Part shown: piece after piece, positions 9,987 to 54,759 of the stretch
Numbering within the stretch: position 1 is the first letter of the stretch
Layout of the letters: each line of letters starts with the position of its first letter
NCBI GenBank assembly: GCA_964644355.1
Contig: CAZXUW010000005.1
Coordinates: forward strand, 24,232-88,231
DNA from: an uncultured Bacteroides sp.
GTDB taxonomy: Bacteria > Bacillota > Clostridia > Christensenellales > CAG-917
Length of the DNA stretch: 64,000 nucleotides
Direction: 5' to 3'
Notes under the pieces: generated by a model
Told to the model about the DNA's origin: nothing
What the model saw: only the letters and a program-made list of their open reading frames with translations
The model's database searches: none
Translations under genes and position numbers: made by a program

Positions 9987-10593
9987 TCACTTCTCCTCTT
10001 TTATGCGGACTTCCTCTTTTTGAGGTTTGTCATAATACCCAAGACGTATCACCTTTGGATTGCCTATCACCATAACAAGTATAGGAATAAGCACGATTTG
10101 CACGACAATCCCCGGTATAGCGTTGGTCACGGCAGATGCGATAAACAACGCAAAGGTGTACTCGTTTCCACTCACGCTCATGCATATGAAAGTCACAAGC
10201 CCCCCACACAAGCCTGCCCACAATCATTGCTATAAGCAATGCCACGTAAATAAATGGTTTTTTCTTTGGCAAAACTTGATACAATATGCCCGAGATCGCA
10301 CCGTATGTCGCAAGCTCGAACGCCATAGCCACTGCGGTTGGAAAAATCGGTGGCATACCAAGCGTCAAACTCCTCAAAAGCGGTGCCATAACGCCAATCA
10401 AAAGCCCATACTGCCATCCGCAAATAAAGCCACACAAAATCACAGGAATATGCATCGGACACAGCATATTCCCCACCGAAGGTATTTGACCGGTCAAAAA
10501 CGGCATCACGTAAGCAAGAGCCAAAAATAAACCTGCCAAAATCATTTTCAATATCTTTTGATGGCGTTCCATGCCAAAAATCTTACCACTCAA
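9987..10593 (-). pseudogene. ECF-transporter S component, frameshifted at a G6 homopolymer
   Basis: ORF 10030..10593 is S-component-like up to ...LIAMIVGRLVWG and then becomes nonsense. ORF 9987..10223 continues in another frame as GLVTFICMSVSGNEYTFALFIASAVTNAIPGIVVQIVLIPILVMVIG. The frames cross at the C6 run 10200..10205 (G6 on the coding strand). Removing one G restores a ~200-aa protein. Confidence 0.7.
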
Positions 10594-10684
10594 AAATGCT
10601 TAAGTCAAGATTATTAAAACAAAACTCTGTTTAACTACTCTCGGGTGCGGGTACCACGCCCTCAATTATTCATTATTAATTCCA

Positions 10685-10718
10685 ATTTACCTCGCATAAT
10701 TAATTATGCGAGGTAAAT
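10685..10718 (-). terminator. Perfect 15-bp-stem hairpin at the 3' end of the SSB-like gene
   Basis: ATTTACCTCGCATAA-TTAA-TTATGCGAGGTAAAT overlaps the last codons and the stop. The trailing T tract is weak. Confidence 0.45.
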
Positions 10719-11311
10719 CTTGATATCGACACTTCATACGCAACTCTTTCCTCAATGCGTCCGTCGTCCAGCTGTTTTTGATATACGCGAGACTGAATAC
10801 GCCCAACAAGCTCTATCCTATCTCCCACCTCAAAAGTTGAGGCGTATCTTGCATTCCTTCCCCATGCAATTGTAGGGATATAATCGGACTTGTTGTATGC
10901 ACGATTCACCGCAAGCAAGATGTCTGCAATCTCCCTCTTGAAAGGCGTTTGGCGGTATACAGGCGGTTTGCACACGAATCCGTCAAGTTCTATGACGTTC
11001 GGACACTGCTCGTCTATTTCGGCAATCTCTCTCACAAACACCCTCAACACAAGTCTGCTATGCCCGTCCACAATCTTGTTGTAACTTCTAAATTGTCCAA
11101 TTAACCCGATTAGATTGCCTATTTCAAAGTCGTCGTCAAGCAATCTGTCACTTATGGTTACGGGGATAATATCCTCTTGTCCGGACAATCTTTCCACACT
11201 GATGCTTGCATCGTAAAAATTCTCCCCCATAATCTCGTGAGAAAAAATCGGCTCGCTTGCAATCTTTCCGCAAAGATACACTCTGTTGTTCTGCATTTCT
11301 TCAAAACTCAT
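10700..11311 (-). CDS. SSB-family OB-fold protein (apparently two tandem OB folds)
   Basis: Two repeats of an SSB-like pattern: NRVYLCGKIASEPIFSHE...ISVERLSGQEDIIPVTI, then IELDGFVCKPPVYRQTPFKREIADILLAVNR...IPTIAWGRNA. An AGGAGG RBS is present. Confidence 0.5.
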   Translation of the reverse strand: MSFEEMQNNRVYLCGKIASEPIFSHEIMGENFYDASISVERLSGQEDIIPVTISDRLLDDDFEIGNLIGLIGQFRSYNKIVDGHSRLVLRVFVREIAEIDEQCPNVIELDGFVCKPPVYRQTPFKREIADILLAVNRAYNKSDYIPTIAWGRNARYASTFEVGDRIELVGRIQSRVYQKQLDDGRIEERVAYEVSISRFTSHN

Positions 11312-11326
11312 ATGTCCTCCTAAACG

Positions 11327-12139
11327 CTAGGCGTTTTTATGTTGTACTCCGTTGGAATCAATCGTATAATCCTTGGTTGCGACAAGTTCGCTCAATTTCA
11401 CAAATCTAAACCCCTGTGCCTTAAGTCCACTCAACACAATAGGCAGGGCATCGAGAACATGATCGCTGTTGTTGTGCATAAGCACAATATCTCCGCTTTT
11501 CGCCTTTGGAAGTATTCTTTCATATATTTGCTTAGCACTCAACCCCTTCCAGTCAAGAGAGTCAATAGACCACTGCACTCCAACCATGCAAAGGCTGTCC
11601 AAGGATGTCATAAGCTTGTTGTCATAGTCACCAAAGGGTGCTCTGAAATACACCGGTTTGATACCTGTTAGACTTTCCACCCTATCGTTGACATATTCAA
11701 TCTCATTGACAATCTCGTCACTGTTGAGCTTTGGCATATTCAAATGATTTCTTGAGTGGTTGCCAATATCGAATCCCGCATCGGCAATTGCTTTTGTTTC
11801 GCTCTCAAACTTATCTATCCAAAACCCAACAAGAAAAAACGTTCCTTTTGCATCATATTTTTGCATAATGTCAAGTATTCCTTGCGTTTTATCCGCACCC
11901 CACGCCGCATCGAACGTGAGAGCAATCACCTTGTCTTCGGATAGCATTTCAACGCTGTACACAGGCACCTTTCTTGTACTTTTGCAAAAGTACACGCCGG
12001 CACTATCCGTTGCCACCACACCGCCAATAAGCACGCAAAGGCAGACAAGGATGGATACCGCATTGATTAGAGTTGATTTTTTCACTGAAGTTATCACAAC
12101 TGCACCCCGATTATATGATATGAAAATTTGCAAAATCAT
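11327..12139 (-). CDS. Polysaccharide deacetylase (NodB-type, membrane-anchored)
   Basis: NodB motifs ALTFDAAWG, GNHSRNH and DSLDW, with an N-terminal TM segment (AVSILVCLCVLIGGVVA). The ORF extends to 12316, but that part overlaps the divergent gene. The start is uncertain: ATG 12139 or a downstream GTG. Confidence 0.8.
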   Translation of the reverse strand: MILQIFISYNRGAVVITSVKKSTLINAVSILVCLCVLIGGVVATDSAGVYFCKSTRKVPVYSVEMLSEDKVIALTFDAAWGADKTQGILDIMQKYDAKGTFFLVGFWIDKFESETKAIADAGFDIGNHSRNHLNMPKLNSDEIVNEIEYVNDRVESLTGIKPVYFRAPFGDYDNKLMTSLDSLCMVGVQWSIDSLDWKGLSAKQIYERILPKAKSGDIVLMHNNSDHVLDALPIVLSGLKAQGFRFVKLSELVATKDYTIDSNGVQHKNA

Positions 12140-12292
12140 AGAGATTATGTCGCAAAAGAGCTGATTTTTTACTTTTTGCGTTATTTTCTCTGTGATAATG
12201 CCCTTTATAAATGGTATTTTTAACAATTGGATAATATTCACAAATTCTTGCGTGCAATTGACTTTACCACGGCACGGCACTATAATATCCGT

Positions 12293-13138
12293 ATGAAAAA
12301 CAATCATCCTCAACAAAATAGCGTTTTCAAAATAATCGCTTTGATAATTCCTTTCGTGCTGATAGCCTTGCTGATGACCGCCCTATTTGCTTGTGGGCTC
12401 ATTTTGATATTCTATGCATTTGCAAGCATAGTCGCATTCAACAGTGCAATGATTTGTCTAATACTCTTGGGAGCAGGGCTTATCGCAATAGGTGCAACAA
12501 TCGCACTCATATTGGCATTCAAAAAGTATTTTGCCTTCTACCAAAAGAAACTTGGCAACAACGTGGTCAAGCAAGAAAAGACGGTTGCTCACGACAAAAA
12601 GTCATTCAAGGATTATTTCACACTTTCCAACGTCGCACTCGCAGTGCTTGCAATCGGTGCTGTATTCACTCTTATTTCAGCTTGCCTTGGCAGTATAAAG
12701 CGTGAAAATTGGCAAAGTGAAACATCAAGCTTCCGCACGCAATACGGCTACTATGGCTCAACGCAATATAGACCTCTCAAGCACTCGCTTGCAGAGGACA
12801 ATAACACAAGTGAGATAAACAAAATCGAGCTAAATTTGCAAAACAAAGAGGCTGTTATCGTCTACACAAACGATATGTCACAATGCGGTTTTGTGGATAT
12901 AGACTATTATGAAAAATACCAAAATCAAGTGAACGTTTCACGCAACAAATACGGCAAAATCACCATCACTGAAAACGCCTTGCAAAATGAAGATGAAAGC
13001 TCGATAAAGAAAATATTTTTCTTTATGTTTGACGACAGCCGTCAAACAAAGCAAGTTATCATCACCCTTCACTCAAGCAATAAAACCAACATCGAAATCA
13101 CCGCAAGCGACACCACCACCCTCATCTACGCCAAATAA
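12293..13138 (+). CDS. Hypothetical membrane protein
   Basis: Starting at MKNNHPQQ there are three hydrophobic segments followed by a ~150-aa soluble C-terminal region. No recognised motif. Confidence 0.5.
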   Translation: MKNNHPQQNSVFKIIALIIPFVLIALLMTALFACGLILIFYAFASIVAFNSAMICLILLGAGLIAIGATIALILAFKKYFAFYQKKLGNNVVKQEKTVAHDKKSFKDYFTLSNVALAVLAIGAVFTLISACLGSIKRENWQSETSSFRTQYGYYGSTQYRPLKHSLAEDNNTSEINKIELNLQNKEAVIVYTNDMSQCGFVDIDYYEKYQNQVNVSRNKYGKITITENALQNEDESSIKKIFFFMFDDSRQTKQVIITLHSSNKTNIEITASDTTTLIYAK

Positions 13139-45216: not shown

Positions 45217-48024
45217 TTAGTCTTGATCGTCGGAGTCTTTTTCCTCTGCCTTGGTTGTCATGCTGAACACGTCACCAAACGGATCTGTTATGCCACTGTC
45301 CGAGCTGAAGTGTATTCCGCCAACACCGACTTTATCCTCGTCCACGGCTTCAAGTTTGCCCTTTCTTCCCGTCGGTTGTGAATACTTCTGATTGAGCGTT
45401 GTGGGGCTCAATGCGTTGGGATCCTTACGTGGTTTTGACGATTTCTTTTTCTTTGGCGGTTGAGGTTCATTTTCAACATTTTGCGCATCAATCACCACTT
45501 TATCGTCATTTTTGGGCTGTTCATCTGCCGTTTTTGTCAATTCATCGACTTTTTCGTCTTTGACTTCAACGTCTTTTGGTTGTTCCTCGTTGGCAACTTC
45601 TCGTGTAGGTTCCTCCTGCTCGTCAGGCTTCACCTGCTCGACAGATTCTTGCTCTTGAGGCTTTGGTTTGCGGTTATACTTGCGTTTGGGTTTATCCTCT
45701 TTTTTCTCATCGAGATTGCCGAGTTTTGCCCCTTCACCCCAAGGTGTTACACTGCCATCACCCTTGAAGCTTATGCCCATACCTTGAGTATCTTCTATGC
45801 GACCGCCAACGTTTATACGCAATTCAGATTTCGCAACTTCTTGCACTTGTTGTTGCTCCTCTTGCGTATCCTCACTTGCAGACGTGGTTGGTTGTTCAAC
45901 AAGCTCTTGTTCAACCACTTTTGGTTTGCGATTGTATTTACGTTTTGGCTTTTCAACCTTGTTTTCATCAAGATTGCCCAGATTTGCACCCTCACCCCAA
46001 GGCGTAACACTGTCATTCTCTTTGATGTGTACGTCACCGACTGCGACCTTGTTTTCATCAACAGGCGTGAGATCAACCTCTTTCTTCGGCTTATTTTCAC
46101 CACTCCAAGGATCGATTTCCTCATCGGATTTTGCAATACGCACTTTGCCTTTCTTGTGCGGTTTTTCCTCATCGGCTTTAGTCTCTTGGACAGGTTGTGC
46201 AACGTCTGGCTGTTGCGTTTCCACTTCGCTCTCAACTTGAGATACCGGCACGAATGTTTCCATGCTCTCAAGTTCTCTATCAAGCTTCTCGTCTTGCACG
46301 GCTTTTTTACGGCGAGCTTCTTCCATTTCCTCAATGGAAGCATTGATCTTGTCTGTATTCTTATCTTCAAGCTCAAGATTTTCGTGCTTGTCAATCTTGA
46401 TCTTTTCAAGTTTCTTGGCTTCTTCTTCCCTGCGCTTATACTCTGCGATCTTTGCCTTTTGGAAGCTGAACGGATCCATGCCGAAATAGGTTGAGTCACT
46501 CTCAACTCCATTCTTTTCAAGCTCCTCTCTCTGCTTGCGGAATGCCTCGGCACGCTTCTTGATGTCCTCTTTGCGTCTGCGGATACGCTCTTGTCTGTCT
46601 CTCTCATCAAGTTCCTCTTGCTTGATGCGACGATATGACGTGAGACAACGATCAATAGCGTCACGAGCTTTGGCAATTTCCTCTTGCTTAAGCTTATCGT
46701 CGTCAGGACGCTTGAACACTTTACGCACCTCAAACAAGTGCTGATCAAACGTCTCAGCATCCGGCTCGAGGTCGACTTCTTCTTGATCTGCCTTTGGAGG
46801 CATCTCCTTGAGTCTCTCAACCTCAACAGGACGCTCCACAACCACTTCGACTTCTATCTCTTGAGGCTTTTCAATCTCCTCGATTTCAGGCTCTTCAGGC
46901 GGAATTTCAGTGTCGGCATCCTCATCCTCTTGAGGTTTGACCTCCTCGATATTCTCCTGTTCGTCCTCATTCTCCTCCGAATCGTCAAGCTTTTGAGCAT
47001 ATTCGTCTCTTTCAAGCTTGTCTTTGTCAAAGTCCATTTCACCAACACGCAGGAAGTCGGCAAATTCCTTATCTTCCATATCGAAGTCGGTTTCGCACTG
47101 ATCGTACAAGCTTTCAAACACCATCGTGTTGAGTGTGAGCATGCTGTTGAGTCTTGCACTGCTCTCGTCGTCGATTGGGAAATCTTCCACCTCGTCGGAC
47201 GTTGAAAAACCTGCCGTCTGTTGATACGTCTCGATAAACTGCCACAAAGTGAGAGCCTTCTTGAAATTTGGCTCCTTCAAAATGACGTTTGTACGCATGA
47301 TAGGCGGACGAACAGGTGCGGAGTTACGCATCGACTTTGCAAATGACGATGACAAGAAGTCTGTGATAATGCGGTCAATTTTTGCAACACGCTCGATCTT
47401 GGTGAGTGTGTCGGGATCAAGACGCATAATCTCATCAAAGCTTAATTGTGCAAAATACTCCGTTCTATAGGTTATTTTCTTGCTTGGAAGATTAAATCTA
47501 GACTCAACGTCAAGCTCCAAGACGTCCTGTGTTGCGGATGCCTTTTTGATCTTGTCATAACGCATTGTGACAAAGTCCTTGAGCTTGAGAAGCAAGGTGT
47601 AAATAAAGCGGTTTTCATAAATCTCAAAGGATTCTTCCTTTGTGATATTGAGAATTTTTGATGGTGTGACGTCACCCGTTTTCTCGTCAACCTTGGAGAT
47701 CATGTTGGTGTGCTGGGCAAGATATTTGACAGACTCTGTCGATATACTTCTTGCAAGCGAAACGTCAACGATATCCTCCTCTTGGACGATGAATTTTCTT
47801 GGGTTACGCACGATTGTATCGAGATTTGGAAGGATACTTTCAATGGTATCGATCCAATCTATGGAGATGTCTTGTACGAGGCGTTTTTTGGCAAGCTTAA
47901 ACTTGGATACGCCTTTATCTACACGTTTTTTGAATTGCTCATAAAAGCCCTCATCCTTGAGGACTGAAACAATCTTGTTCGCATACGATACGTACACTTC
48001 TCTTGTAATCTTATTGTCAGCCAT
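45217..48024 (-). CDS. McrC-N-terminal-domain-like protein lacking a nuclease, with a ~620-aa charged low-complexity repeat tail
   Basis: 935 aa. Residues ~1-315 look globular and include ESFEIYENRFIYTLLLKLKDF (compare E. coli McrC NEDTLANRIIKSTLAILI). No hhhDxK nuclease motif is found. Residues 316-935 are E/K/D/Q-rich with internal repeats. The gene lies immediately downstream of an McrB-like gene. Confidence 0.6.
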   Translation of the reverse strand: MADNKITREVYVSYANKIVSVLKDEGFYEQFKKRVDKGVSKFKLAKKRLVQDISIDWIDTIESILPNLDTIVRNPRKFIVQEEDIVDVSLARSISTESVKYLAQHTNMISKVDEKTGDVTPSKILNITKEESFEIYENRFIYTLLLKLKDFVTMRYDKIKKASATQDVLELDVESRFNLPSKKITYRTEYFAQLSFDEIMRLDPDTLTKIERVAKIDRIITDFLSSSFAKSMRNSAPVRPPIMRTNVILKEPNFKKALTLWQFIETYQQTAGFSTSDEVEDFPIDDESSARLNSMLTLNTMVFESLYDQCETDFDMEDKEFADFLRVGEMDFDKDKLERDEYAQKLDDSEENEDEQENIEEVKPQEDEDADTEIPPEEPEIEEIEKPQEIEVEVVVERPVEVERLKEMPPKADQEEVDLEPDAETFDQHLFEVRKVFKRPDDDKLKQEEIAKARDAIDRCLTSYRRIKQEELDERDRQERIRRRKEDIKKRAEAFRKQREELEKNGVESDSTYFGMDPFSFQKAKIAEYKRREEEAKKLEKIKIDKHENLELEDKNTDKINASIEEMEEARRKKAVQDEKLDRELESMETFVPVSQVESEVETQQPDVAQPVQETKADEEKPHKKGKVRIAKSDEEIDPWSGENKPKKEVDLTPVDENKVAVGDVHIKENDSVTPWGEGANLGNLDENKVEKPKRKYNRKPKVVEQELVEQPTTSASEDTQEEQQQVQEVAKSELRINVGGRIEDTQGMGISFKGDGSVTPWGEGAKLGNLDEKKEDKPKRKYNRKPKPQEQESVEQVKPDEQEEPTREVANEEQPKDVEVKDEKVDELTKTADEQPKNDDKVVIDAQNVENEPQPPKKKKSSKPRKDPNALSPTTLNQKYSQPTGRKGKLEAVDEDKVGVGGIHFSSDSGITDPFGDVFSMTTKAEEKDSDDQD

Positions 48025-50844: not shown

Positions 50845-50937
50845 TAGTAATTTACAAAACGGCAGTTTTTGTCCGTAAACGCAATGTGACATAAGGCATT
50901 TGCAATCACCATGATGCTGTTGGAGCAATGCGTCAAA

Positions 50938-51162
50938 GTGCCGATTGACGACACCACTATAAAATGTCAAAGATTTCACAGCACACTGTGCTTGAGATAT
51001 AAAAAACGAAAAATAACATACAGAAATAAGGTTTTTTTAGAAAGGGGGCTTTATTTCGATAAGGAGAAAAACGATGAAAAAGAAAGGTTTGCTTATCTCA
51101 ACAATCGCAATGGTTGTTGTGCTGATCGCAGCTCTTACTACATCAACTTACGCTTGGTTTAC
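50938..51162 (+). repeat. Left arm of a 225-bp inverted repeat (promoter + 5'UTR + first 29-30 codons of TasA-like gene A)
   Basis: Identical to the reverse complement of 53063..53287 at 224/225 positions. The single mismatch is at 51143 (TCA Ser versus ACA Thr). Confidence 0.95.
50975..51003 (+). promoter_or_regulatory. Promoter of TasA-like gene A with a spacer palindrome
   Basis: TTCACA (50975..50980), 17 nt, TATAAA (50998..51003). The palindrome AGCACA-c-TGTGCT (50980..50992) lies in the spacer. Confidence 0.5.
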
Positions 51163-52138
51163 TGTGTCAACCACTACGAATATTGATGGTTTTACCGTCA
51201 GCGTAGAAGCCGGTAACGTTATGGCAATTGGTTTGAACGCACAAGGTTATACATCATACAGCGATGCTGCATCCCCAGACAATTTTGTTTCAGGAACTGT
51301 AACCTATACACATGGTGGTGATGATGATGGTGTTGCTAATGGATATTGGACAGGCAACCAAGGCCTTGGTGCATCTATTTCGCATGATATTGTTTGGTCA
51401 ACTCAAAGTAAAGCTGTTGGATTCTCAAGTGCAGGAGCACTTTCAGGTGCAACATATGCAAACACAAAGTTTTATAAGAATGATGGCACAGTTGAAAATA
51501 ATAACGGATCATCTTTCGATTTAGCAATTGCTGCAAATGGTTCCACAACATCCATGGAAGCTCCACGCCTTGCTATTGAAAACAAGAAAACTACAGCTGA
51601 TACCGACGAGTCCACTAATGGTGACTATGTTTATATGTTCCTTGGTGCACAACCAACACAAGCTTTGATGGATAATACAAACATTTTGCATGTTGTCATC
51701 CAACCACAAGGCACAGGCACAAGAATTGGTATGGCCGCAGCTATCCATGTTGCATACAGAGTTAATGGTGGTGATTGGGAAGATGTTGATGTCTATGGTG
51801 CTGCAAACAAACATTATAATGACGAAAGAGCCTCGACAGAAGCTAAAATTTATGGTGATATTACTGGTACAGGCAAATCCAATGGTTTAGATGCAAATTC
51901 TTTGTCATATTCTACGACAACATATCAAACCACTATAACGGGTGCAAAGAGTGTTGATATCCCGTTGACACAATACACCGATGCTACATCAAGTGCACCG
52001 TTTGATCAAATTGAATTGATAATTTATGTTGCAGGTGCAGACAGCGATTGCCTTGACTCAGCAAAGAATGGTTCTATCAGAATTGGCATATTCTTCGGAG
52101 CACAAGAAGCAATCACTTCAAATGAAGGGAATAACTAA
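51074..52138 (+). CDS. TasA/camelysin-like secreted protein A with SipW-cognate-type signal peptide
   Basis: Signal peptide MKKKGLLISTIAMVVVLIAALTTSTYAWFT (compare TasA ...GGGTWAAFND and CalY ...GGGTFAYFSD). The C-terminus KNGSIRIGIFFGAQE resembles TasA QGNSIKLQFSFEATQ. An AAGGAG RBS is present and SipW genes are adjacent. Confidence 0.7.
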   Translation: MKKKGLLISTIAMVVVLIAALTTSTYAWFTVSTTTNIDGFTVSVEAGNVMAIGLNAQGYTSYSDAASPDNFVSGTVTYTHGGDDDGVANGYWTGNQGLGASISHDIVWSTQSKAVGFSSAGALSGATYANTKFYKNDGTVENNNGSSFDLAIAANGSTTSMEAPRLAIENKKTTADTDESTNGDYVYMFLGAQPTQALMDNTNILHVVIQPQGTGTRIGMAAAIHVAYRVNGGDWEDVDVYGAANKHYNDERASTEAKIYGDITGTGKSNGLDANSLSYSTTTYQTTITGAKSVDIPLTQYTDATSSAPFDQIELIIYVAGADSDCLDSAKNGSIRIGIFFGAQEAITSNEGNN

Positions 52139-52160
52139 TAAAACCAAAATTGATAACGAA

Positions 52161-52188
52161 AAAACACGGCTCGATTGAGCCGTGTTTT
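52161..52188. terminator. Bidirectional terminator between the convergent TasA-like genes
   Basis: AAAACACGGCTC-gat-tGAGCCGTGTTTT. Confidence 0.65.
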
Positions 52189-52209
52189 GCGTTATAAGAT
52201 GATTACGAA

Positions 52210-53151
52210 TTAGGTTGAACTTTCTGCTTTCTTATCTGCAATAAAGTTAATTGTTATAACTGACTTAACGTTTGCTGCATTACTATTGCAGTCTTGATCT
52301 TTACCATTGATAAAGAGTTTAATATGGATTTGATGAATTTCACCTTGTGGGACAATATCAGTTCCGTTGCCAGTAATTTCTATTTCATATGTCTTTGCGC
52401 CAGGATTCCAAGTTATATCCGGTATTTCAATTGGATTATAATTGGTTGTACCATTTATTGTTGTCGTTGCACTATGACCCTCGTACACATCAATTATGTC
52501 TGACCAACTGCCATTATCAATTTTGTAGATGAAAGAAATAGCTGCATTCATGCCCAATACTGTTGAAGATGAATCAGGGTTAACGCCTATAACGCATTTT
52601 ACTTTTGTAACATTTTGTTTGGCAGGTGCAACGCCAAATGCAACGTCCAGATAGTCGCCAGTATTGTCTTCACCTTTGATACCATTTGCAACTGCATTTT
52701 CAATTTCGGTTCTTGTAACATCTTGACCGCTACCAGAAGCTTTTACCCAATTCCCTTCAGGTTGCAAAGTTTCATCAATAGTACCCGAAGAATCATTACC
52801 TGCGACATAGGCTGTACCTGTATAAACAGCTTTCTTCATGCCAGCAAGACTCAAACCGGTATCAACCTCAAAACCAAGACCTTCTGTACCATCCCACGCA
52901 TTTTTAGTGATATCATATGAAAGACCAGAACCGCTAACAAATAAATTTTGTCCGATAGAATCGCCTGTATTTATTTTATTTGTTTTGGAAACACCAATTG
53001 TCAAATCAGAGTCAGAAGTAACTTCAAAATTTATTGGCCTAACTTCAGTTTTCGAAGCTGCTGTAAACCAAGCGTAAGTTGTTGTAGTAAGAGCTGCGAT
53101 CAGCACAACAACCATTGCGATTGTTGAGATAAGCAAACCTTTCTTTTTCAT
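52210..53151 (-). CDS. TasA/camelysin-like secreted protein B with SipW-cognate-type signal peptide
   Basis: Signal peptide MKKKGLLISTIAMVVVLIAALTTTTYAWFT, identical to A except for one residue. The mature part is highly diverged from A. C-terminal motif IHIKLFINGKDQDCNSNAANVKSVITINFIA. Confidence 0.7.
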   Translation of the reverse strand: MKKKGLLISTIAMVVVLIAALTTTTYAWFTAASKTEVRPINFEVTSDSDLTIGVSKTNKINTGDSIGQNLFVSGSGLSYDITKNAWDGTEGLGFEVDTGLSLAGMKKAVYTGTAYVAGNDSSGTIDETLQPEGNWVKASGSGQDVTRTEIENAVANGIKGEDNTGDYLDVAFGVAPAKQNVTKVKCVIGVNPDSSSTVLGMNAAISFIYKIDNGSWSDIIDVYEGHSATTTINGTTNYNPIEIPDITWNPGAKTYEIEITGNGTDIVPQGEIHQIHIKLFINGKDQDCNSNAANVKSVITINFIADKKAESST

Positions 53152-53287
53152 CGTTTTTCTCCTTATCGAAATAAAGCCCCCTTTCTAAAAAAACCTTATT
53201 TCTGTATGTTATTTTTCGTTTTTTATATCTCAAGCACAGTGTGCTGTGAAATCTTTGACATTTTATAGTGGTGTCGTCAATCGGCAC
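53063..53287 (-). repeat. Right arm of the 225-bp inverted repeat
   Basis: Reverse complement of 50938..51162 (224/225). It contains the mirrored promoter (53222..53250) and palindrome (53233..53245). Confidence 0.95.
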
Positions 53288-53676
53288 ATTTGCGTAAAGA
53301 TTTGCGATGCGAATCTTTTATGCAATGATATCCCTTTGGGATGATATCCAACTGCTTTGGATTGTGGCATATCTGACAATGCAGACAAGTGCACTTATAC
53401 ATTATGTATATTAATTATAGCCTTTGCGTATGCCAATGTCAACACTAAATTTGTATTTTTGTGCTTTTTCAGCGATTTAATACAACAATTTGTTTTATTT
53501 TTTAATACTGTTGTCGTTTTATCCAACAGATGTATTGCAATTTTCTTGTTGCTCATCAAGCATTTGTTTTGGCTGTTTTGCAAGATTTTATGAGCAAAAT
53601 GCGGATTTCACCACTCTTAAAAGGATATCATCGGCAAAGCCGATATCATTTGCAAGCAATGCTTGCAAGTTTTTTG

Positions 53677-54759
53677 TCAGCTTGCGTAGAAATTCAAGCC
53701 CATCTTGCAGTAGCCACCGATGGCGGAGTCGATGCAATCAAAATCACTGCCCTCAATCCATATGCTGAGATAGCAGTACATGATGTCTCCCTTGGCTAGA
53801 TCAAGACTGTTTTGAAAGACAAATTCGTCAGATGCGAATGGTGTGGTTGCTTTGTAGCCGTGCAATTGTGCGGTCATCTTGGTGTCTGCATCCGCATTGA
53901 GCATGGCATCATAGTCTTTGAGATAGTAATATTTGCCATTTGGATGCACGTTAAGACCGACTTCTCTGTCGTACGCAACGCATTCGATATAGCCGTCCTC
54001 TGCCGTTCTGCCAACGTTGTAGGCATTGTCGGCAAGACGCTCACTGTCACTCAAAGAGGCATATACGTTGATGTTGGTGGCACTCTCCCCATCTTCAAGC
54101 CCGATAGGATTCTTGAGGCTGTATCCCCACATAACTCGCACGGAGTCTTGCAAATCGTGATCGTCAAACTCAAGCGTCATTTCATAATCGACGTGAGCTT
54201 CCTCGTTGCCGTTGTTGCGGAGCATGAAGGTGAATGCTATATATTGCTCGCCATTCATCTCGCCAAGCTCAAACTCGTCGGCATTGAGCAAGGAATATAC
54301 CTCGCTTTCGCTGAGCGGAGTTTCCGTGCCATAGCGTGAATCATAGCTGATGTTCCAGATGTCATCGGGACCGTCGGCGTTGAGGTATGGCGTCCAATAT
54401 TCATTGTCCATGGACAAAGAAATCGACTTGTCCTTGTTGCGATTGTTGACCGTGATACGCACGTTGTTTTCTTCCATAAGCAACAGCATGATGTACACGA
54501 TTGACGTAACCACAAGAGCAAACACAAGCATGATGAGCATCGCCCTCTTGACCTTGGCACGAAGCTCCTCTCTCTTGACCTTTTTGGACGCAACGATACT
54601 GTCCTCCCATTCCTTTTTCAAACGGGCGGTCTCTTTTGCGGAATTGCGAGCACTCTTTTTGCTCGATTTCGCCTTTTTGGCAGATGAGGACTCCTCAAGC
54701 TCATCGTAAGCTTGCTCGTCCATCTCATCCTGCATTCTTTCAATATCGTTTTCGCTCAT
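53677..54759 (-). CDS. Single-pass (type II) membrane protein with an ectodomain ending in the TasA-like C-terminal motif
   Basis: A charged cytoplasmic N-terminus of 72 aa, then the TM segment AMLIMLVFALVVTSIVYIMLLLM, then a ~265-aa ectodomain. The C-terminus CYLSIWIEGSDFDCIDSAIGGYCKMGLNFYAS aligns with A (LIIYVAGADSDCLDSAKNGSIRIGIFFGA) and B. Confidence 0.65.
   Translation of the reverse strand: MSENDIERMQDEMDEQAYDELEESSSAKKAKSSKKSARNSAKETARLKKEWEDSIVASKKVKREELRAKVKRAMLIMLVFALVVTSIVYIMLLLMEENNVRITVNNRNKDKSISLSMDNEYWTPYLNADGPDDIWNISYDSRYGTETPLSESEVYSLLNADEFELGEMNGEQYIAFTFMLRNNGNEEAHVDYEMTLEFDDHDLQDSVRVMWGYSLKNPIGLEDGESATNINVYASLSDSERLADNAYNVGRTAEDGYIECVAYDREVGLNVHPNGKYYYLKDYDAMLNADADTKMTAQLHGYKATTPFASDEFVFQNSLDLAKGDIMYCYLSIWIEGSDFDCIDSAIGGYCKMGLNFYAS

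Follow-up and report, generated by a model that had tools for sequence, protein, structure and literature searches.

A nuclease-less McrC-type (DUF2357) protein with a long charged tail, clustered with an McrB-type GTPase and SipW-type signal peptidases in uncultured Clostridia

The window analysed here, a stretch of 64,000 nucleotides (nt) of contig CAZXUW010000005.1 from an uncultured member of the Christensenellales, carries on the minus strand at 45217-48024 an open reading frame (ORF) that starts with ATG and encodes a protein of 935 amino acids (aa). It is well supported, with respect to both identity and architecture, that this gene encodes a protein with an N-terminal domain of the DUF2357 type and without a nuclease. 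Our best explanation, to which we assign a probability of around 60%, is that it represents, within a GTPase module of the CoCoPALM type that descends from McrBC, the McrC-type subunit, the tail of which acts as an adaptor that couples the GTPase to SipW-dependent fibre biogenesis and not to DNA cleavage. The N-terminal domain would plug into a cytoplasmic GTPase ring and control the hydrolysis of GTP in an McrC-like manner, and a helical stalk plus a flexible tail would replace the nuclease as a tether or adaptor of variable length that links the ring, at the membrane, to other proteins of the cluster, among which the SipW peptidases are the most probable partners. The turnover of GTP, perhaps gated by cyclic di-GMP (c-di-GMP) via an EAL-domain protein, would then be coupled to the processing, export or assembly of secreted fibre subunits, so that the output would be envelope or fibre biogenesis instead of DNA cleavage. 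We infer this coupling because of gene fusions, conserved adjacency and patterns of gene loss.

The sole Pfam match of the protein is DUF2357 (PF09823), over residues 61-163 (E=2e-8; score 34.2 bits, cutoff 23.3). With residues 1-332 as query, 1971 homologous proteins were recovered, and 119 of the 120 that were listed carry PF09823 only. An exhaustive profile search yielded 1916 clusters (50% identity) at E<=1e-3, including 976 at E<=1e-30; the best 150 of the 1916 were examined, and in all of these, which are close family, the DUF2357-type domain is N-terminal. The best PF09823 E-value among the 62 long representatives of the family that were scanned is 8.4e-13. Several motifs are invariant family-wide, namely IVRNPRKF (71-78), EED (82-84), KEES..YENRF (129-140) and VRPPI..N (238-246). 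The preliminary description of this DNA had likened the motif ESFEIYENRFIYTLLLKLKDF to NEDTLANRIIKSTLAILI of E. coli McrC; the former is indeed located at residues 131-151 and the latter is indeed present in McrC, and Pfam bears out the proposed DUF2357/McrC type of the domain, both here and in nearly all of the homologues that were listed. The link to McrC is made because of the Pfam family and the literature that equates DUF2357 with the N-terminal domain of McrC, by which McrB is contacted and activated (Bell et al. 2024, PMC11090510). A direct similarity to E. coli McrC, which belongs to another Pfam family (PF10117), was not recovered. Likewise, a sequence search of the PDB with the McrC-like protein gave no match, a search of the PDB with the family profile returned coiled-coil noise only, and PADLOC and NCBIfam contained no match to the protein. 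The AlphaFold2 (AF2) model of residues 1-340, built on a 57-sequence alignment, had a mean predicted local distance difference test score (pLDDT) of 68.5 and a predicted template modelling score of 0.47. The segment 78-130 is the most conserved stretch of the N-domain and at the same time the least confident part of this monomer model; it may constitute the McrB-engaging stalk or finger that folds only against its partner.

On the lack of a nuclease, claimed beforehand from the letters of the sequence, domain search, motif search and predicted structure all agree. A motif search of the whole McrC-like protein for two to three hydrophobic residues followed by [D/E]-x-K found none, and Pfam gave nothing for residues 315-935 even at E<=10, PD-(D/E)xK included. 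The AF2 model of the tail, which was built with a 53-sequence alignment of tail-bearing orthologues, contains zero beta-strands, and therefore the prediction, within its limits, leaves no room for a cryptic PD-(D/E)xK fold. The same holds for the family: neither PD-(D/E)xK nor DUF524, for which it had been suggested to inspect the homologues, was detected by Pfam in the long representatives (0/62). The additional Pfam matches within these 62 were to coiled-coil families (TMF_DNA_bd, crescentin rod, apolipoprotein, ATG16 and others), to Peptidase_S26 in two cases and to AAA_15 plus an OLD-type TOPRIM in one.

The region that replaces the nuclease, residues 316-935, is rich in Glu (17.3%), Lys (12.6%) and Asp (10.2%), and the fraction of charged residues ranges from 0.3 to 0.65 per 40-aa window. 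The characterization as a polyampholyte, as put forward originally, is correct with respect to this composition and to the long disordered part, but around 170 aa are confidently predicted to form long helices and thus are not plain polyampholyte. These helices (423-438, 447-507 with a pLDDT of 92-95, 518-542 and 557-590 in the AF2 model) make up a stalk, the best heptad register of which has a hydrophobic fraction of around 0.6 at the a/d positions. The head of the stalk carries the element LFEVRKVF (430-437) ... AIDRCL (456-461), and the corresponding pattern, LFEVRK[IL][FY] followed by 18 residues and AIDR[CV]L, was observed in nearly every tailed homologue, the distant ones included. An invariant GMDPF motif follows at residues 514-519. 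Within the disordered region we found two copies of ..TPWGEGAxLGNLDE..KPKRKYNRKPK (within residues 655-702 and 748-788) and a C-terminal module LSPTTLNQKYS..VDEDKVGVGGIHF..GITDPFGDVF (872-920) that precedes an acidic end. In the clade of the window, GMDPF, VDExKVxVG and the C-terminal ..VGGIxF..GIxDPFG are conserved within an otherwise fast-evolving tail. Homologues of the tail occur on DUF2357 proteins only. The total length of the McrC-like orthologues varies across species from 323 to 1245 aa, which corresponds to tails of 0 to ~930 aa. One family member, P0001, turns into unrelated sequence after about residue 390 and maybe derives from a chimeric contig.

A connection between the tail and the SipW peptidases is suggested by two proteins, P0348 (1016 aa) and P0375 (969 aa), which represent distinct and independent 50%-identity clusters. 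Both are in-frame fusions of DUF2357, a charged helical tail, a transmembrane (TM) helix, a SipW peptidase, a second TM helix and an acidic tail, and the fused peptidase is of the complete SipW type (TM, TGSMEP...THRI, TM, acidic tail). At the level of sequence, these fusions provide a 'Rosetta stone' link of the McrC-like tail to the SipW peptidase. In the window the McrB-like and McrC-like genes as a pair are flanked by the genes of two SipW-type signal peptidases, one of which lies 23 nt downstream of the McrC-like gene. The Ser/His catalytic motifs are kept in both paralogues, and the larger one, of 309 aa, has a C-terminal TM helix and an acidic cytoplasmic tail. By eye, both paralogues show an acidic cytoplasmic tail of ~70 aa after the last TM helix, with a similar helix [LI]S[DE]E[DE]K[KR][KR]L..., and a related helix motif stands after the last TM helix of P0348 and P0375.

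The stop codon of the McrB-like gene, which was rightly described as situated directly upstream on the same strand, lies 39 nt before the McrC-like gene. The proposed pairing with an McrB-type GTPase holds as well, given that the AAA+ core of the upstream gene product matches McrB (PDB 6hz4/6ut6, 2.6e-7; NCBIfam McrB, 1.5e-7). The Walker A sequence GISGTGKT (212-219) is invariant in 67/67 GTPase orthologues, the signature GTANNDDST (340-348) is found in 62 of these 67, and a Walker B sequence LDEMN (within 279-286) is present in the GTPase of the window. The N-terminus consists of a hydrophobic segment, a TM helix (54-79), basic residues, a 27-aa helix (93-119), an acidic linker and a conserved GESRFYKLTE motif; the TM helix, the positive patch and the 27-aa helix are conserved among orthologues. 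Because the TM helix has a positive-inside topology, the GTPase is predicted to be cytoplasmic and anchored in the membrane.

Loci were fetched from 80 species; relatives are encoded in 342 species genomes. Where the flanking sequence suffices, a recurring set was found that comprises an EAL protein, a membrane anchor, one to three secreted proteins with a TYAWF-type signal peptide, SipW, the McrB-like and the McrC-like protein and again SipW. The Christensenellaceae have a permuted order, in which the McrB-like and the McrC-like genes are separated by a SipW gene. The carriers are uncultured Clostridia of gut and rumen (Christensenellales-like metagenome-assembled genomes and CAG:475) and Erysipelotrichaceae, and they include a complete chromosome of 1.65 Mb (L072). 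The McrC-like copy on this chromosome (10001-12880) is broken by frameshifts, as is typical for long-read assemblies. Of the 53 loci that extend far enough downstream, 34 share with the window a location of the cluster immediately upstream of comM-dprA. The preliminary description had overlooked the signal-peptidase and secreted-protein surroundings; its expectation of an output other than DNA cleavage agrees with the direction indicated by the genomic context.

The proteins of the cluster evolve at different rates. Among close relatives the identity to the proteins of the window was ~95% for the GTPase and 92-95% for the N-domain of the McrC-like protein, compared to ~90% for ComM, ~70% for DprA, 52-69% for the two SipW paralogues and 64-74% for the whole McrC-like protein including its tail. 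Judged by these identities, the GTPase and the N-domain are about as conserved as ComM or more so, unlike arms-race defence genes. The high identities and the stable position therefore suggest a cellular machine that is inherited vertically and under strong constraint, with an appendage that evolves fast, and not a mobile defence island. Two orthologues lack the tail (L058, 10001-11044, 347 aa; L059, 10001-10972, 323 aa). They have kept the comM-dprA synteny, and the genes for the upstream SipW, the secreted proteins, the membrane anchor and the EAL protein are absent from their neighbourhood. The system may here be reduced or in decay.

Table 1. Features of the McrC-like protein and of the surrounding gene cluster in the window
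Feature	Position	Strand	Evidence
McrC-like (DUF2357) protein without nuclease, whole ORF, 935 aa	45217..48024	-	ORF list, Pfam, P0121
N-domain, residues 1-315	47080..48024	-	Alignments; AF2 mean pLDDT 68.5
Pfam DUF2357-matched stretch, residues 61-163	47536..47844	-	Pfam profile positions 89-191 of 251
Conserved helix extending the N-domain, residues 316-360	46945..47079	-	AF2 tail model, invariant columns
Acidic, proline-containing disordered linker, residues 361-421, length varies between species	46762..46944	-	Composition, alignment, AF2
Helical stalk, residues 423-590	46255..46758	-	Alignments, AF2
Disordered polyampholyte with conserved short motifs, residues 591-935 (~345 aa)	45220..46254	-	Alignments, AF2
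McrB-type AAA+ GTPase, 502 aa	48064..49572	-	PDB, NCBIfam and PADLOC matches, orthologue alignment
SipW-type (archaeal/ER-type) signal peptidase paralogue, 309 aa	49694..50623	-	NCBIfam sigpep_I_arch 3.1e-13, SipW 2.9e-12
Second SipW-type signal peptidase, 258 aa	44417..45193	-	NCBIfam SipW 2.6e-31; sigpep_I_arch 4.5e-23, above cutoff
Secreted protein, 354 aa, N-terminus MKKKGLLISTIAMVVVLIAALTTSTYAWFT	51074..52138	+	TasA/camelysin-style signal peptide by eye; orphan family
Paralogous secreted protein, 313 aa, N-terminus like that of the 354-aa protein	52210..53151	-	Signal peptide by eye
Membrane-anchored protein, 360 aa: basic cytoplasmic N-tail, one TM helix, outside domain	53677..54759	-	hhalign, conserved neighbour
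EAL-domain protein, 609 aa	54847..56676	-	Pfam EAL 1.4e-20; NCBIfam LapD-type receptor 1.6e-7

The two secreted-protein genes of the window are convergent and their products share N-termini of the form MKKKGLLISTIAMVVVLIAALTT(S/T)TYAWFT. Judging by eye, we take these signal peptides to resemble those of TasA and CalY. The secreted proteins belong to an orphan family with 158 homologues, every one of which is unnamed, and the gene of the 313-aa paralog has a consensus promoter upstream and a terminator-like hairpin downstream. The neighbouring 360-aa membrane protein shares a C-terminal motif (IWIEGSDFDC.., IWIEGSDFDCIDSA..) with the secreted proteins (hhalign, E=5.6e-5) and may be a membrane-anchored base or anchor subunit. 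The last member of the cluster, the EAL protein, has catalytic motifs that by eye are degenerate (QVL for EAL and SAFGED for DDFGTG), and the LapD-type model that it matches is that of a c-di-GMP receptor. The protein further contains a long charged linker and then around four aromatic/glycine repeats (G-x-W-V-D-x-D-G-N-V-x-x-G-Y-F-D-x-E-G), which match the mycoplasma EAGR box very weakly only (E=0.95). Across clades its length correlates with that of the McrC-like protein (Spearman 0.78, n=17, with points that are phylogenetically non-independent). The window also carries sporulation genes (spoIIIA-like).

The SipW-TasA-TapA operon of B. subtilis combines an archaeal-type signal peptidase with adjacent secreted proteins, the signal peptides of which end in T-[FWY]-A-x-F-[STN], and with a membrane-proximal accessory protein. 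The cluster in the window shares all of this: a dedicated archaeal-type peptidase that adjoins secreted proteins with such signal peptides, and a membrane-proximal accessory protein. It differs in that the secreted proteins show no detectable TasA/camelysin homology and in that the peptidase is present as two paralogues, each of which has a long cytoplasmic tail. Moreover, we know of no AAA+ GTPase or McrC-like protein in the Bacillus system.

The secreted-protein genes are enclosed by a 228-nt inverted repeat that is 99% identical, with arms at 50935-51162 and 53063-53290 around a segment (51163-53062) that holds both genes. Each arm consists of 139 nt of 5' leader and the first 89 nt of coding sequence, which specify the signal peptide up to TYAWFT. 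A promoter that matches the consensus in 12/12 positions is located just beyond the right arm (53442-53414, minus strand). Considering that it lies outside the repeat, inversion of the segment would exchange the gene body that it drives. A like architecture, with arms that are 91-99% identical within the genome, was found in L008, L032, L040, L042, L046 and L072, and a weaker arm pair (80% over 108 nt) in L045. In a comparison of L040 with L042, from related genomes, the orthologous gene body was found inverted and at the opposite end between collinear flanks. On basis of these observations we consider the segment a candidate switch for phase or antigenic variation. There was no recombinase gene near the segment, and a metagenome scan for the flank-arm junction of the inverted state gave no match. 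A look-up of the exact 354-aa secreted protein, aimed at the flipped state in the same strain, gave one contig of 1.4 kb only.

Nuclease-less relatives of McrBC have been noted before. Bell et al. (2024, PMC11090510) introduced the CoCoPALM class in two sentences and deferred its analysis; we found no follow-up literature on it. According to these authors it comprises McrB GTPases of the NxD clade, which have the signature NxD rather than NxxD, usually followed by D or E, and which are fused to an FtsB-like TM plus coiled-coil domain. Coiled-coils occur on the McrB and McrC homologues alike, there is an association with a signal-peptidase family, and in this region of the phylogeny the nuclease is often missing from the McrC homologues (PMC11090510). 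The system in the window has in common with this description an McrB-type GTPase with an N-terminal TM and helical segment, a helical or coiled-coil extension on a McrC homologue without nuclease, and the association with signal peptidases, in the form of the two SipW-type peptidases that flank the pair and of the in-frame fusions. Its N-x-D-D signature is compatible with the NxD clade: the near-invariant A-N-N-D-D-S (62/67) reads as NxD plus D, although the ungapped alignment to NTAD of E. coli also fits NxxD. The reported FtsB homology of the GTPase N-terminus was not reproduced. The association with signal peptidases and the coiled-coil of the McrC homologue agree with CoCoPALM. The notion of a nuclease-less McrC homologue with a coiled and charged extension, which implies an output other than restriction, is correct, and it was already present in the literature as a named class. 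Not contained in the description of CoCoPALM are the full conserved cluster (the two SipW peptidases, the TYAWF-signal proteins, their membrane-anchored relative and the degenerate EAL protein), the LFEVRK..AIDRCL element, the variability of the tail between 0 and ~930 aa, the DUF2357-SipW fusions and the ~345-aa motif-bearing disordered extension in the lineage of the window. What is added here is the parts list, the anatomy of the tail, its variability in length, the peptidase fusions, the conservation argument against defence and the inverted-repeat arrangement.

The protein shares with E. coli McrC (PDB 6HZ4, 6UT6) that it is encoded directly downstream of an McrB-type GTPase, that it has an N-terminal domain of the type that the literature calls the McrC N-terminal domain (DUF2357) and, by eye, the helix motif E-x-x-x-(A/E)-N-R-(I/F)-I-x-x-T-L. 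It differs from it by the lack of PD-(D/E)xK, by the Pfam family (DUF2357 versus PF10117) and by the lack of a significant profile or fold match, and the partner GTPase has a predicted membrane anchor in place of the DNA-binding domain of McrB. With CnuC of the CoCoNuT systems (e.g. Type III-A) it shares a putative position among the NxD-clade McrC homologues, the loss or inactivation of the nuclease and the presence of coiled-coils (PMC11090510). However, CoCoNuTs always come with a nearby HEPN or other nuclease and with RNA-binding domains, and their GTPases are soluble (PMC11090510), whereas the system in the window is without any nuclease and is partnered by membrane and secretory proteins.

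Several observations weigh against an adaptor in fibre biogenesis. A Foldseek comparison of the mediocre AF2 model (1-340) with the PDB gave no match at E<=0.001 and no McrC within the top 50, which for a model of this quality is not evidence of a different fold. A comparison of E. coli McrC with the family profile by hhalign returned nothing (probability 0.1). The secreted proteins match no TasA/camelysin (Peptidase_M73/TasA), Pfam, NCBIfam or PDB profile, so that the label 'fibre subunit' is given because of the style of the signal peptide and the association with SipW. The contact of the tail with SipW is deduced from gene fusions and adjacency only, and the tail is dispensable in some lineages. 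In addition, the CoCoPALM kind as such is uncharacterised, and the best named match of the GTPase is to a candidate phage-defence model, PADLOC PDC-M26A (3.6e-36). The main alternative is a role in anti-phage or anti-plasmid defence, in which a CoCoNuT-like derivative of Type IV restriction would use the GTPase and the McrC-like protein as sensor to trigger a membrane- or secretion-based abortive response rather than DNA cleavage. The McrBC ancestry of the module, the match of the GTPase to PDC-M26A, the placement of CoCoPALM beside the CoCoNuT systems by Bell et al. (PMC11090510) and the single family representative with AAA_15 and an OLD-type TOPRIM agree with such a role. Nevertheless, we hold it to be quite unlikely: PADLOC recognised the GTPase alone and gave nothing relevant for the McrC-like protein and the neighbours, no nuclease, HEPN domain or other toxin was found in the protein or the cluster, and the pair invariably occurs together with signal peptidases and secreted proteins. 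The stable position among housekeeping genes, the conservation of GTPase and N-domain at or above the level of ComM, and the retention of the cluster in a genome of 1.65 Mb point away from defence as well.

It is also conceivable, though rather unlikely, that the module serves as a scaffold at the cytoplasmic membrane in a different envelope process, for example division, sporulation or cell-wall work. The tail would then be an entropic spacer or an arm that binds membrane or nucleic acid, and the association with the secreted proteins would be indirect. The FtsB-like N-terminus reported for the GTPases (PMC11090510) fits a scaffold, as do the tail motifs that combine W/F with basic residues (KPKRKYNRKPK) and could bind anionic lipids or nucleic acid, the spoIIIA-like genes in the window, and one homologue that was automatically annotated as TolA-like. 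Yet Pfam gave no FtsB or DivIC match for the GTPase N-terminus at E<=10, the cluster travels as a unit with SipW and the TYAWF-signal proteins, independent of division and sporulation genes, and the DUF2357-SipW fusions tie the tail to the peptidase. That the long ORF would be an artefact of assembly or annotation, or a decaying pseudogene with a tail of meaningless low-complexity sequence, is highly improbable, even though the compositional bias of the tail, its spread in length and its internal repeat might raise the suspicion. That repeat, of 106 nt with 77% identity, is the only internal DNA repeat in the ORF. A full-length copy of 935 aa that is 99% identical (P0121) was recovered from independent assemblies, which removes the concern, voiced at the outset, of a fusion created across repeats. 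Full-length orthologues of 800-1245 aa with an intact reading frame exist in dozens of species and many independent genomes, including contigs of 0.4-1.6 Mb, conserved elements of their tails persist across 44-81% identity, and the prediction of long helices in the tail is confident. An assembly artefact was rejected on these grounds.

The adaptor function can be extended to a more speculative proposal, which we regard as possible but clearly less than probable, namely that an McrBC motor was exapted as the cytoplasmic engine or regulator of an unrecognised surface-fibre machine of Gram-positives, widespread among gut Christensenellales and related Clostridia. In such a machine a tethered GTPase ring would hold the DUF2357 protein as a 'shaft' and the tail of the shaft would hold the SipW peptidases; the degenerate EAL protein would provide control by c-di-GMP, and the major fibre subunit would maybe be switched by inversion between the 228-nt repeats.

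McrBC is the textbook example of a modification-dependent restriction motor. Here, the pair of GTPase and activator comes without a nuclease, has a predicted membrane anchor and is firmly tied to a conserved cluster that also encodes secreted proteins and dedicated signal peptidases, in abundant and mostly uncultured gut Clostridia with genomes down to 1.65 Mb. If our explanation is true, not every McrB/DUF2357 pair should be annotated as a restriction system, and the AAA+ GTPase of a defence system would have been reused for the biogenesis of envelope or fibres. For the CoCoPALM class, which was named but left unexplored, there would be a defined set of parts that can be put to the test, and the tails of 0 to ~930 aa, helical and disordered, would constitute a natural series of one adaptor for the study of tethers.

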